From Shigella phage vB_SdyM_006, in the sequence record MK295204: DNA of 64,000 bases. One strand, 5' to 3'. Below the pieces are notes generated by a model. That model saw nothing but the letters and a program-made list of their open reading frames with translations. It ran no database searches and was not told the DNA's origin. Shown in pieces: positions 1,128-3,898 of this stretch. The first letter of the stretch is position 1, and the number at the start of each line of letters is the position of its first letter. Both the position numbers and the translations under genes were made by a program.

Positions 1128-1203
1128 TGGTACACCTACGGGAATTCGAATCCCGGTTACACGCTCGAAAGGCGTGGGTCCTAGACCACTAGACGATAGG
1201 TGC
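1128..1203 (-). tRNA. tRNA-Glu (anticodon UUC)
   Basis: Manual cloverleaf on reverse complement: 7-bp acceptor stem, T-loop TTCGAAT, anticodon loop CTTTCGA, 3' CCA encoded. Confidence 0.8.
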
Positions 1204-1210
1204 ATTAAAA

Positions 1211-1302
1211 TGGAGGAGAGTATGGGATTCGAACCCATGGAACAGCGTAACTGTCCAACGGTTTTCAAGACCGTCTCAATAATCCATCTCTGACAACTCT
1301 CC
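1211..1302 (-). tRNA. tRNA-Ser (anticodon UGA), type II with long variable arm
   Basis: Acceptor GGAGAGT/ACTCTCC, anticodon loop CTTGAAA, long variable arm, T-loop TTCGAAT, CCA encoded. Confidence 0.8.
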
Positions 1303-1309
1303 AATATAA

Positions 1310-1627
1310 TTAAAACAGTAGACTATAAACAGTACCTTTACAATCTATAGGTTGTGTTTTTGAATATTCTTTAAATAGATTTAAATAACCAATTTCTTCA
1401 GGTTCCCATTGTCCTTCTAAACCATAACATGAACAATGTGAGCCGTTAACTTCCCAAAATATATCATTACTATCTTTGAAGATTACAGTAGCATACCCAG
1501 AATAATCTTCATAATCGTAATATGCTAAAATGATTTCTTTGTCATTAAGTGAATCCATAGGGATTTGGAATTCATGACAGATGTCTTCTTTTGAAGTAAA
1601 CAGTTCCATAAACACATTAGTTTTCAT
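1310..1627 (-). CDS. hypothetical protein
   Basis: Track ORF 1310..1720 trimmed to internal ATG at 1625-1627 (MKTNVF...) because the 5' extension overlaps tRNA-Asp. Confidence 0.45.
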   Translation of the reverse strand: MKTNVFMELFTSKEDICHEFQIPMDSLNDKEIILAYYDYEDYSGYATVIFKDSNDIFWEVNGSHCSCYGLEGQWEPEEIGYLNLFKEYSKTQPIDCKGTVYSLLF

Positions 1628-1650
1628 ATCAATATCCTCAAAATTAATTT

Positions 1651-1726
1651 TGGCGGTCTTACCGAGAATCGAACTCGGTGCTGTTCCGTGACAGGGAACT
1701 ATGTTAACCAGGTACACCATAAGACC
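1651..1726 (-). tRNA. tRNA-Asp (anticodon GUC)
   Basis: Acceptor GGTCTTA/TAAGACC, anticodon stem GTTCC/GGAAC with loop CTGTCAC, T-loop TTCGATT, CCA encoded. Confidence 0.8.
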
Positions 1727-1919
1727 TTAAAAATGTACCCATCCGGCTTTCCAGTCTGGTGAAGGGTTGTCACCTCTAGTTTAAACCTGCTAGTCAAGTA
1801 ATAATTGCATATCGTCCAATTATCAAAACCGTCTAGGTTATATTACACCACTTCCTAGAATACCGTCTAAGCGGACTTGATCGACGTAGATTACACCATA
1901 TACGTCTGATTGTGGAATT

Positions 1920-1994
1920 TGGAGCGATCTACGGGTATCGAACCCGTATCTTCTGGGTGGAAACCAGAAATAATAGCCATTATACTAAGATCGC
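1920..1994 (-). tRNA. tRNA-Gly (anticodon UCC)
   Basis: Perfect acceptor stem GCGATCT/AGATCGC, anticodon loop TTTCCAC, T-loop TTCGATA, CCA encoded. Confidence 0.85.
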
Positions 1995-2615
1995 ATATTT
2001 ATTAATAAATCTTCTTGCTTGGGTATGACTTAATCCTATATGTTTAGCAAATTTATTTAAGTTACCTCTTATTGAAATATCAAATGATTTTAATATTTCT
2101 AATCTATAATTAATTTCGTCTTTTGACAATGTAGAGGCATTATTAATAGAAATTTTGTTTTTAGATATATCCGAATGTCTCTTATTTTTAAAACCAAACG
2201 AATTTTTCTTTTTGCTAAAATCATATAATCCGAGTCTAAGTCTTTTCTTAAATGTATTAACTTGTTTACTTATAGTTAATTTAGATTTTGGCAATGAATT
2301 TATATAATCCCAACCACCTTCACCACCAACTTTTAAATTATATGTATTTTTGCTTTTAACAAATTTTTCTGTAACTATTTTGGCTTCATGTATAAACATG
2401 TCATACTTATTTTTATGAAATTTTAAAATAGTTTTTTCAAAATTTTCTTTGCCATATTTTTCTATGGCTTTTTTCAAAATCTTACCTGAACCAAAATATC
2501 CATCTTCTAAATCTTTGGTTTTATGAACACCTATATAAATTTTATTATTTATTTTATTTTTAATTTTGTATGTATAATAAAACATTATAGCCTTATTTAT
2601 CTTTTGGTACTCCAT
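1980..2615 (-). CDS. GIY-YIG homing endonuclease (Seg-like) embedded in the tRNA cluster
   Basis: N-terminal GIY-YIG motif (FYYTYKIKNKINNKIYIGV...GSG), basic C-terminal region; T4 segB sits in the equivalent tRNA region; 3' end overlaps tRNA-Gly by 15 nt. Confidence 0.6.
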   Translation of the reverse strand: MEYQKINKAIMFYYTYKIKNKINNKIYIGVHKTKDLEDGYFGSGKILKKAIEKYGKENFEKTILKFHKNKYDMFIHEAKIVTEKFVKSKNTYNLKVGGEGGWDYINSLPKSKLTISKQVNTFKKRLRLGLYDFSKKKNSFGFKNKRHSDISKNKISINNASTLSKDEINYRLEILKSFDISIRGNLNKFAKHIGLSHTQARRFINKYAILV

Positions 2616-2779
2616 TCTTTATTAGTTGCTTTATTAACAGCAGTAGAATAAGAATTTTTAATATCTTCTGTAACAGAATAGCCAGTTAACATAGTAGAAA
2701 TTAAAATAACATATCCAAGCATTAATAAAATACAAGATAAAAATCCTGCAATAATAAGAATTGTACCTAAAGTAGTCAT
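2597..2779 (-). CDS. small hydrophobic (membrane) protein
   Basis: Track ORF 2597..2890 trimmed to internal ATG at 2777-2779 (MTTLGTILIIAGFLSCILLMLGYVILI...) because the 5' extension overlaps tRNA-Met/Ile. Confidence 0.35.
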   Translation of the reverse strand: MTTLGTILIIAGFLSCILLMLGYVILISTMLTGYSVTEDIKNSYSTAVNKATNKEWSTKR

Positions 2780-2798
2780 ATTGTTCTCACAAATTATT

Positions 2799-2874
2799 TG
2801 GTGACCCACCATGGAATCGAACCATGCTCCAACGCTTATGAGGCGTTCGCTTTCAACCAGTAAGCTAGAGGGCC
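2799..2874 (-). tRNA. tRNA with CAU anticodon (Met, or Ile if lysidine-modified)
   Basis: Anticodon stem AACGC/GCGTT with loop CTCATAA, T-loop TTCGATT, CCA encoded; one T-T mismatch in acceptor stem. Confidence 0.7.
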
Positions 2875-2881
2875 TTGCAAT

Positions 2882-2966
2882 TGGTGGCACCGGGTAGACT
2901 CGAACTACCGAAGGCCGAAGCCTGGAGATTTACAGTCTCCTGTCATTGCCGCTAGACTACGATGCC
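2882..2966 (-). tRNA. tRNA-Tyr (anticodon GUA), type II
   Basis: Acceptor GGCATCG/CGGTGCC, discriminator A, anticodon loop CTGTAAA, long variable arm, CCA encoded. Confidence 0.8.
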
Positions 2967-3011
2967 TTTTCTTATCAATAACGACTAAAAATAATCGTTA
3001 TTAATCAGAAT

Positions 3012-3088
3012 TGGTACACACTACTGGATTCGAACCAGTGACCTACGGTTTAGAAGACCGTTGCTCTATCCATCTGAGCTAAGCATGC
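3012..3088 (-). tRNA. tRNA-Arg (anticodon UCU)
   Basis: D-stem GCTC/GAGC, anticodon stem ACGGT/ACCGT with loop CTTCTAA, T-loop TTCGAAT, CCA encoded; three G-U pairs in acceptor stem. Confidence 0.75.
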
Positions 3089-3089
3089 A

Positions 3090-3380
3090 TTATAAGTACT
3101 GTTTAATCAGTTCTTCGTTATTTTTAAAAAGAATAAAAATATTATCACGAACTTCAGTATCTGAGATATGCCATTTCATAGCATCAATTAAAATGTCTTT
3201 TGGGATCATATTATATAAATTATTTAGTAAAGCAATATTATTTATATCAATATCAACTTCAAATAATTCAAAAATACAACACGAAATAGAATCATAAAAA
3301 TCTTTAATGTCTATTTCATACTTAGACAAATTATTTATAAATTCTGTTTTAGCTTGTTCTGGATTATGTGCTTTAAACAT
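3090..3380 (-). CDS. hypothetical protein
   Basis: ORF in track, same strand as neighbours, no recognisable motif. Confidence 0.45.
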   Translation of the reverse strand: MFKAHNPEQAKTEFINNLSKYEIDIKDFYDSISCCIFELFEVDIDINNIALLNNLYNMIPKDILIDAMKWHISDTEVRDNIFILFKNNEELIKQYL

Positions 3381-3402
3381 TTTTATTCCTATTATTCTAA
3401 AA

Positions 3403-3477
3403 TGGCAGGCTCTGTAGGAATCGAACCCACGTCTTCGGATTTGGAATCCGGTATTCTACCGACTGAACTAAGAACCT
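3403..3477 (-). tRNA. tRNA-Trp (anticodon CCA)
   Basis: Acceptor AGGTTCT/AGAGCCT, anticodon loop TTCCAAA, T-loop TTCGATT, CCA encoded. Confidence 0.75.
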
Positions 3478-3478
3478 T

Positions 3479-3562
3479 TGGCGGGCAGTGTAGGATTCGA
3501 ACCTACGTCGTCAAATGACACGGATTAACAGTCCGCTGCTTAATCCACTCAGCCAACTACCC
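3479..3562 (-). tRNA. tRNA with GUU (Asn) anticodon but type-II architecture (13-nt variable arm)
   Basis: Acceptor GGGTAGT/ACTGCCC, discriminator G, 3-bp D-stem, anticodon stem GCGGA/TCCGT with loop CTGTTAA, variable-arm hairpin GTCATTTGAC, CCA encoded. Confidence 0.6.
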
Positions 3563-3898
3563 AATAATTTTTGCATCTTCTGAATAACTAGAAATACTAC
3601 CCCATTCTGAAGTATTAAATGAAACTTTATTTCCGTTTTTGAACTCTATAACTATATTTATATTGTCAACAGAAATCTCATTATCAGATGATTCTCTTTC
3701 TGAGGTTTTTAAATATGTATCCATAGTTTCAATAGTCACTTCTTCTGTTTGAAGAAGAGGTGAATAGTACTCAGCTAAATAAACTTTATTTACAATATCA
3801 CCAAAAATAGTTTTAGCAATATCAGTTAATTTAGTTGTTTCTTTTAATAAATGTTTCATAATATGTCCTTCACATGGAGTAGAAATTAATAATAACAC
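3557..3898 (-). CDS. hypothetical protein
   Basis: ORF in track; 3' end abuts tRNA. Confidence 0.45.
   Translation of the reverse strand: MLLLISTPCEGHIMKHLLKETTKLTDIAKTIFGDIVNKVYLAEYYSPLLQTEEVTIETMDTYLKTSERESSDNEISVDNINIVIEFKNGNKVSFNTSEWGSISSYSEDAKIIG

Follow-up and report, generated by a model that had tools for sequence, protein, structure and literature searches.

The 64,000-nucleotide (nt) stretch of DNA from Shigella phage vB_SdyM_006 analysed here (sequence record MK295204; "the window" below) carries on its minus strand, at 3479..3562, an 84-nt gene for an asparagine tRNA, tRNA-Asn(GUU), with an encoded CCA end and a class II body. Long variable arms are otherwise restricted, according to the textbooks, to the tRNAs for Leu, Ser, Sec and bacterial Tyr. 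A sequence-only reading of this DNA had proposed the gene, and ARAGORN and Rfam (RF00005) agree with it. The Rfam match spans 3482-3562 (59.2 bits, E=2.7e-11; gathering score 29) and includes a 10-nt insertion in the variable region, and ARAGORN, which had been named there as a check, returned the same anticodon (gtt) and the same gene bounds.

In the RNA sense, the 5' half of the molecule reads GGGUAGU UG GCUG AGUGGAUU AAGC A GCGGA CUGUUAA UCCGU, and the 3' half after UCCGU continues as GUCAUUUGACGAC GUAGG UUCGAAU CCUAC ACUGCCC G CCA. The acceptor stem has 7 pairs (GGGUAGU/ACUGCCC, including U4.G69) and is followed by U8 and G9, and the T-arm (GUAGG-UUCGAAU-CCUAC) has a stem of 5 base pairs (bp). 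According to the sequence and the Rfam alignment, the D-arm (3537..3553, minus strand; positions 10-25 plus A26, with U16 in the loop) holds three Watson-Crick pairs, G10-C25, C11-G24 and U12-A23, plus the mismatch G13.A22, as expected from the 3-bp D-stem noted before. The anticodon arm GCGGA-CUGUUAA-UCCGU (3520-3536, minus strand), with the GUU anticodon called by ARAGORN at positions 34-36 (3527..3529), is identical to that of E. coli asnT in 17 of 17 positions; the discriminator base is G73 (3482..3482). Both the loop CUGUUAA and the discriminator had been read correctly from the sequence. The 13-nt variable arm (3507..3519, minus strand), GUC-AUUU-GAC-GAC, folds into a 3-bp stem, a 4-nt loop and a 3-nt 3' tail ending with C48, and its GUC/GAC hairpin, already noticed in the sequence-only reading, is present in both the minimum free energy and the centroid fold of the single sequence. 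In an alignment with asnT, the hairpin occupies the site of the 5-nt loop AUGUC. Thus, the window tRNA shares with a canonical type I tRNA-Asn(GUU) such as asnT the anticodon arm, G73 and the decoding task, whereas the 4-5-nt variable loop and the 4-bp D-stem of a type I body are replaced by the hairpin and by the 3-bp D-stem with G13.A22, and the first pair is G1-C72 instead of U1-A72.

The gene is by no means confined to this phage. A BLAST search with the 84 nt against 50,697 phage records matched 625 of them; in 615 records the alignment extends over 80% or more of the gene, with ~77-89% identity, and all annotated records among the matches listed annotate a tRNA-Asn. The cultured enterobacterial carriers fall in four phage lineages, represented by Serratia phage CHI14 (89% identical), Epseptimavirus (T5-like), Jiaodavirus (T4-like Klebsiella phages) and Phapecoctavirus. 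A separate search found an 83-nt version in 291 T5-like Epseptimavirus records. In the fetched tRNA regions (8-18 kb) of TrudiRoth (Epseptimavirus), ESCO13 (Phapecoctavirus) and Klebsiella phage 17-11 (Jiaodavirus), the long gene is the only tRNA-Asn. IMG/VR was scanned with the pattern GACTGTTAATC-N(17-30)-GTTCGAATC, which gave at least 120 matches. If the gap is widened to N(11-30), its length in a sample of 120 sites is bimodal (N=11-13 in 109 sites, N=18-28 in 11 sites, none between), i.e., ~9% of the viral tRNA-Asn genes fitting the pattern in this sample have a long arm. Note that the pattern fixes positions 30-40 and part of the T-arm, so that conservation of the anticodon in these sets is partly by construction; the BLAST-derived set is free of this particular bias.

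In 185,579 bacterial and archaeal species (one genome each), the long pattern was found at 20 sites only; at 14 of them ARAGORN calls a long-armed tRNA whose anticodon is GUU. Six of these 14 lie within arrays of 10-23 tRNAs, which are typical of phage DNA, and several others are located on short contigs of metagenome-assembled genomes (MAGs). Frequent among phages, the class is thus almost missing from cellular genomes, a contrast that is large but qualitative, as the cellular set was scanned for the long pattern alone. A host parent was sought in E. coli as well: among the matches listed for a BLAST search of 5,426 complete genomes there is generic tRNA similarity only (tRNA-Lys, ~70%), which is uninformative about a parent.

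The arm is a conserved helix. A hairpin of at least 3 bp can be formed in 104 of 115 distinct long sequences (shuffle mean, 75.6) and one of at least 4 bp in 61 of them, compared with a mean of 24.8 and a maximum of 39 in composition-preserving shuffles. These sequences comprise 64 distinct arm stems, and GNRA loops dominate (GAAA in 25, GCAA in 7, GUAA in 6). For an alignment of 39 diverse members, RNAalifold predicts acceptor, D, anticodon, variable and T helices. Here 94.5% of the cells are paired, versus 61.3% in shuffles and 35-46% if the partners are slid by 1-3 columns, and the covariation score of 0.833 (0.201 in shuffles) was reached by none of 500 shuffles. The arm helix itself is 93.6% paired, with changes on both sides in 22, 23 and 17 sequences for its three pairs; the D helix has three covarying pairs. 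The 39 aligned members were drawn from sequences already parsed as hairpin-bearing. The BLAST-derived enterobacterial set, which is free of that bias, displays the same on a small scale (arm stems GUC/GAC, GUUC/GAAC, GUCA/UGAC and GUCC/GGAC), along with acceptor-stem changes that compensate each other. We conclude that the extra hairpin has been kept by selection.

Furthermore, a long and a canonical short tRNA-Asn occur together in 36 of 118 phage loci (e.g., L003, L004, L016, L029, L040), which argues that the two forms are non-redundant. In these two-Asn loci their mean identity is 0.58, no higher than between unrelated tRNAs. We define the long-arm tRNA-Asn class by the GUU anticodon, G73 (rarely U73), an arm hairpin of 3-4 bp, a 3' tail of 3-4 nt and location in a phage tRNA cluster. 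The window tRNA has all these features, and its arm belongs to the covarying type.

Which amino acid would such a tRNA carry? In bacteria, asparagine identity consists of the three anticodon bases and G73, and it was transplanted to a tRNA-Lys body by the anticodon and G73 alone (PMC9976931). In the long family, the discriminator is G73 in 101 of 115 sequences and U73 in 12, and the first pair is U1-A72 in 72 of 115; short phage tRNA-Asn from the same loci are alike in both respects (G73 in 121 of 123, U1-A72 in 94 of 123). The window tRNA has G1-C72 in place of U1-A72, the pair that is typical of bacterial tRNA-Asn and required by GatCAB. By established rules, the loop CUGUUAA predicts queuosine at position 34 (Q34) and N6-threonylcarbamoyladenosine at position 37 (t6A37). 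G73 together with the asnT-identical anticodon arm points to asparaginyl-tRNA synthetase (AsnRS) as the charging enzyme, and judging from these determinants we are fairly confident that this is a functional tRNA charged with asparagine. Mistranslation, which the sequence-only reading had offered as one option, is unlikely: the AsnRS determinants GUU and G73 are present and conserved, while A73, critical for tyrosyl-tRNA synthetase (TyrRS), is absent.

Two sets of sequences deserve mention on their own. The U73 subgroup of long tRNA-Asn (12 of 115 sequences, versus 2 of 123 for the short form; e.g., L013, L016, L044, L047, L049, L072, L091, L119) combines G1-C72 with a distinctive D-arm, GCUUUAG(A/U)GG(C/U)CGAAAAGU, and its charging enzyme is less predictable. 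A Chromatiales MAG (JBQTIC010000110.1; L240:5291-5376) encodes an 86-nt tRNA with a GUU anticodon on a body entirely of the tyrosine type (A73, G1-C72 and a Tyr-like arm). In contrast to the phage family, it resembles a genuine tRNA-Tyr in which A36 has changed to U, and is a candidate for either a tRNA inserting Tyr at Asn codons or a sequencing error.

In the window, the tRNA-Asn gene comes first in a cluster of nine tRNA genes (1128..3562, minus strand; ARAGORN and Rfam), with the transcription order Asn, Trp, Arg, Tyr, Met, Gly, Asp, Ser, Glu. tRNA-Trp(CCA) (3403..3477, minus strand; ARAGORN) begins 1 nt downstream, and a canonical tRNA-Tyr (GUA, A73; 2882-2966, minus strand; ARAGORN and Rfam) lies 513 nt away, in line with the ~500 nt stated earlier. 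Upstream there is an open reading frame (ORF) of 113 amino acids (3557..3898, minus strand), the TAG stop of which falls within the first 6 nt of the tRNA (GGGUAG); owing to this overlap (3557-3562), the tRNA is probably cut from the 3' end of the transcript. This ORF has no family match in Pfam or PHROGs, and searches of the flanking small ORFs against the same databases revealed no function apart from a GIY-YIG (Seg-like) homing endonuclease encoded within the cluster (1980..2615, minus strand; Pfam SegE_GIY-YIG, 26.5 bits; phrog_314, E=2.7e-44). A scan for promoters and terminators gave matches only at chance level. The window phage is of the T4 type, and its structural genes are 99.7% identical to those of its closest relative, Proteus phage phiP4-3 (genus Bragavirus), the tRNA cluster of which comprises Arg, Tyr, Met, Pro, Gly, Asp, Ser and Glu, without Asn and without Trp. 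Compared to it, the window cluster has the Asn-Trp pair in addition and lacks Pro. Given this difference and the endonuclease in the cluster, a plausible route for cassette exchange, the Asn-Trp pair looks like an exchangeable cassette. Two weak Rfam matches to a plastid psbI-rps4 3' untranslated region family, at 1214-1266 and 3482-3528 on the plus strand (40.3 and 29.6 bits; gathering score 68), lie opposite tRNA-Ser and tRNA-Asn. Probably they do not represent real elements but reflect, in antisense, the T-arm and variable arm of class II tRNAs.

The body of the window tRNA is a mosaic. Beside the Asn-type anticodon arm, the variable arm matches that of E. coli tRNA-Tyr (tyrT, CGUCAUCGACUUC) in 9 of 13 positions, which bears out the resemblance noted before, and the T-arm matches it in 15 of 17; the acceptor stem is like neither. 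Overall identity is at the background level for tRNAs (tyrT 68%, asnT 61%; within the window, Tyr 62%, Ser 67%, Trp 62%). With tRNA-Tyr of bacteria and phages, the window tRNA shares the 3-bp arm stem, the 3-nt 3' tail, G13.A22, A26 and G1-C72; it differs by G73 in place of A73, by U36 in place of A36 and by the Asn-type stem of its anticodon arm. This geometry holds for the family. In the same phage loci, tRNA-Tyr arms have a stem of 3 bp, 0-1 unpaired nt on the 5' side and 3 on the 3' side, and long tRNA-Asn arms have 3-4 bp (mostly with a tetraloop), 1 nt and 3-4 nt, respectively. tRNA-Ser (4-7 bp, mostly 1 nt, 0-2 nt) and tRNA-Leu (3-5 bp, 0 nt, 1 nt) have other proportions, and the comparison makes the long tRNA-Asn tyrosine-like and not Ser- or Leu-like. 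With the arm removed and the anticodon masked, Tyr was the best profile for 43 of 102 family cores, ahead of Ser with 22 and short Asn with 19 (mean scores of 33.7, 30.2 and 31.1 bits), i.e., the core appears class II-like but is only weakly assignable.

The sequence-only reading had suggested a Tyr-derived tRNA retargeted to Asn codons. The class II body, the arm geometry and the core profiles speak for such a relationship in a general sense, but not for a recent derivation from the neighbouring tRNA-Tyr. We rejected a recent duplication of that gene followed by an anticodon change: the two window genes are 62% identical; across 83 phage loci, the most similar tRNA in the same locus can be of any isotype, and the mean identity to the co-resident tRNA-Tyr (0.575) is not above that to the short tRNA-Asn (0.584). 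Nor is a Tyr gene an enriched neighbour of the long Asn gene (4% versus a background of 3%); the commonest neighbour is another Asn gene (18%). The architecture is thus tyrosine-like, with no recent Tyr-to-Asn conversion visible. As to the deep origin, the body may derive from an ancient tRNA-Tyr, or else a tRNA-Asn may have received a hairpin to which its D-arm then adapted.

Other tRNAs are known that combine a long arm with an anticodon unusual for class II, namely nematode nev-tRNAs and bacterial allo-tRNAs. In these, the amino acid follows from the Leu- or Ser-type body, and they serve as suppressors of the missense or nonsense kind. In the window tRNA, by contrast, the identity elements agree with the anticodon. 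Allo-tRNAs also differ in having an 8/4 or 9/3 acceptor/T geometry (PMC5389517), whereas that of the window tRNA is 7/5.

In our opinion, the best explanation overall, with a probability of about 0.62, is that the gene specifies a functional tRNA for asparagine, belonging to a structural class peculiar to phages. It would be transcribed with the minus-strand cluster, after the small ORF and 1 nt before tRNA-Trp, and as CCA is already encoded, end processing alone would be needed. According to the identity rules, host AsnRS would then add asparagine via GUU and G73, and the tRNA would read AAU and AAC. Asn accounts for 6.1% of 18,006 codons in 56 long ORFs and 79% of the Asn codons are AAU, in accordance with the abundance previously stated for this AT-rich genome (GC content of the window, 31.9%); for such an AAU-rich demand a supplementary tRNA-Asn would be useful. 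In this tRNA the selected hairpin stands in place of the 5-nt variable loop of type I, alongside a D-arm of class II type. The weakest step concerns what the hairpin does: its most plausible role would be to alter recognition by proteins other than AsnRS, the leading candidates being host nucleases that attack tRNA-Asn, so that asparagine decoding would survive an attack by a defence system or a toxin. An ordinary decoding function for the long tRNA-Asn is probable from its sequence features, but a role of the arm as a recognition-altering or anti-nuclease device is proposed here only tentatively, and we would sooner bet against it than for it.

A concrete candidate is the nuclease AriB of the PARIS defence system, which cuts E. 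coli tRNA-Asn(GUU) between positions 40 and 41 in the context U36AAUC↓N (PMC12409363). In the literature searched, this study was the one experimental work we found that touches on phage tRNA-Asn. T5 tRNA-Lys, tRNA-Thr and tRNA-Asn together rescue cells from PARIS; in an AlphaFold 3 model, the AriB dimer bridges C40/A41 and U16-U17 of the D-loop, and U16C impairs cleavage, while the study is silent on the variable region (PMC12409363). The arm is located at positions 44-48, three nt from the cut site, and one may conjecture that it obstructs the modelled dimer. The T5 tRNAs and the window tRNA would then have in common that a phage-encoded tRNA replaces a host tRNA targeted by a defence nuclease; however, the T5 variants escape by substitutions at positions 39-41 or 16 (PMC12409363), whereas the window tRNA differs by an added arm. 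T5 itself (NC_005859) encodes between tRNA-Cys and tRNA-Asp a 78-nt type I tRNA-Asn (L252:9953-10030) with the loop UUGUUAA and a weakened anticodon stem, in which we read 3 of 5 pairs. In TrudiRoth, the 83-nt long-arm tRNA-Asn (L253:9001-9083) is found between the same two genes. In view of this apparently shared position, T5-like phages appear to hold two different departures from the host tRNA-Asn.

Several points weigh against the proposed explanation. The window tRNA has no substitution at positions 39-41 or at U16; it keeps U36AAUC↓C41 and U16 and by its sequence looks cleavable by AriB, so that only the arm could provide protection. The tRNA-Asn of T5 that served in the PARIS rescue lies outside the long-arm class, being the 78-nt type I form with its altered anticodon stem. 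Class II synthetases of the Asp/Asn/Lys group approach the tRNA from the side of the variable loop, and tolerance of the arm by AsnRS is assumed here. Finally, rescue of Bas34, a relative of T5 whose own tRNA-Asn may be of the long or the short type, still took the plasmid-borne T5 tRNA-Asn, although cleavage of its own tRNA was not excluded by the authors (PMC12409363).

The design of the arm is not restricted to asparagine. In IMG/VR loci (e.g., L049, L016, L038, L057), arms in which 1-2 nt lead into a stem of 3-4 bp with a GNRA loop, followed by a tail of the CAUC/CACC type, are also found on other tRNAs, including those for Thr(UGU), Ile(GAU, UAU), Met and initiator Met, Cys, Lys and Asp; in each, the discriminator and acceptor marks of its isotype are kept. 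If Ser, Leu, Tyr and Asn are set aside, 9.0% of the tRNAs in loci with a long tRNA-Asn have an arm of 10 nt or more, compared with 3.3% where the tRNA-Asn is short (odds ratio 2.9, p=1.6e-5). Over all ARAGORN tRNAs of L001-L229, long arms on isotypes that are usually type I are about twice as frequent with U (10.1%) or A (11.2%) as the last anticodon base as with C (4.3%) or G (2.8%). Anticodons ending with U or A belong to tRNAs that read codons whose first base is A or U; Arg(UCU) and Phe(GAA) depart from this in having no long arm. As the sample is biased to Asn-containing loci, we regard this wider pattern as a lead. On a scaffold of Prevotella sp. CAG:1092 (L239:7426-7499), a 20-tRNA array contains a 74-nt tRNA with a CUA anticodon, labelled Pyl by ARAGORN, which looks like an amber-suppressor tRNA of a stop-codon-recoded phage; a tRNA labelled Pyl is also present in L004.

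A broader and rather speculative interpretation is that phages have evolved a tRNA class absent from cells, in which type I isoacceptors acquired a tyrosine-style arm and a class II D-arm. Asn would be by far the commonest of them, with Thr(UGU), Ile, Met, Cys and Lys included too, each with its own identity marks, and the window gene would be the representative from enterobacterial phages. The arm could then serve as a general escape from defence nucleases, or as a tag distinguishing phage from host tRNAs for phage factors, leaving the amino acid unchanged.

Against a phage-specific class with a function of its own stands a neutral variant, in which a hairpin inserted into the variable loop is tolerated by AsnRS and the ribosome and spreads with horizontally transferred tRNA cassettes. 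This is improbable, though it survives better than the other rivals. Indeed, the hairpin sits exactly at the AUGUC site of asnT; the cassettes are mobile, as the absence of Asn-Trp from the otherwise 99.7% identical phiP4-3 and the homing endonuclease in the cluster illustrate; and the fetched regions of three phage lineages have no tRNA-Asn but the long form. However, neutrality fits poorly with compensatory changes over 64 distinct stems capped by GNRA loops, with an arm length lacking intermediates, with the near-absence of the class from cellular genomes, with the 36 loci that hold both forms, or with the recurrence of the arm design in other isotypes of the same phages.

It is quite unlikely that the tRNA, charged or not, acts mainly as a decoy, i.e., as a sponge or competitive inhibitor of a host tRNA-binding defence protein. 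The PARIS authors suggest that overexpressed viral tRNAs may inhibit AriB by competition (PMC12409363), and with the host-like anticodon arm and U16 retained, binding would still be possible. Nevertheless, a decoy would hardly account for the conservation of all translation features (CCA, the 7/5 geometry, the T-loop, G73 and the anticodon loop), for phages in which the long gene is the only tRNA-Asn of the fetched region, or for the high Asn codon demand of the window phage.

Similarly unlikely, and slightly behind the decoy, is a mistranslator that is charged by seryl-tRNA synthetase (SerRS) on account of its long arm and inserts Ser at AAU and AAC. C11-G24 is known from older work as a serine identity element, and tRNA-Tyr has reportedly been charged with Ser after its arm was lengthened by one base pair (Himeno et al. 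1990). The window tRNA has this pair as well as G1-C72, G2-C71 and G73. Serine identity is independent of the anticodon, both acceptor pairs are a conserved trait of bacterial tRNA-Ser, and in vivo G73 acts as a determinant for serine (PMC9976931). However, the arm of the window tRNA, with 3 bp and a 3-nt tail, departs from the 4-7 bp and 0-2 nt of phage tRNA-Ser. Moreover, most of the family starts with U1-A72, and 33 of 115 members have C2-G71, which is listed as an antideterminant for SerRS (PMC9976931); what the family conserves are the AsnRS determinants, not serine features.

A Tyr-derived tRNA that is still charged by TyrRS, with Tyr inserted at Asn codons, can practically be dismissed. 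The Tyr-like arm geometry, G1-C72, the G34 and U35 common to tRNA-Tyr and the matches to tyrT in the T-arm and variable arm would suit it, but tyrosylation critically needs A73 and U35, with G1-C72 in bacteria, and G73 is an antideterminant against TyrRS and LeuRS (PMC9976931). In fact, phage tRNA-Tyr have A73 without exception (62 of 62, mostly with G1-C72), whereas long tRNA-Asn have G73 or U73. Equally negligible is a pseudogene or prediction artefact, as the high covariance-model score and the conservation with compensatory changes across four phage lineages contradict it.

The gene itself is not new, as hundreds of GenBank records annotate it as tRNA-Asn; what appears to be new is its unexpected, conserved and phage-restricted body plan. 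In the searchable full-text literature (the older T5 tRNA papers being outside the search) we found no description of a class II tRNA-Asn, or of any phage type I isoacceptor with class II architecture. A conserved class II tRNA-Asn breaks the textbook restriction of long arms to a few isotypes. If AsnRS charges it, this class IIb synthetase tolerates a long arm, with consequences for the rules of tRNA identity and for how orthogonal tRNAs are designed. Should the arm protect against PARIS/AriB or colicin-type nucleases, this would represent a second escape route beside the point substitutions of T5, and could help to explain why phages carry copies of abundant host tRNAs. As the cultured carriers include TrudiRoth/Bas30, a member of the BASEL collection, the question is experimentally accessible.

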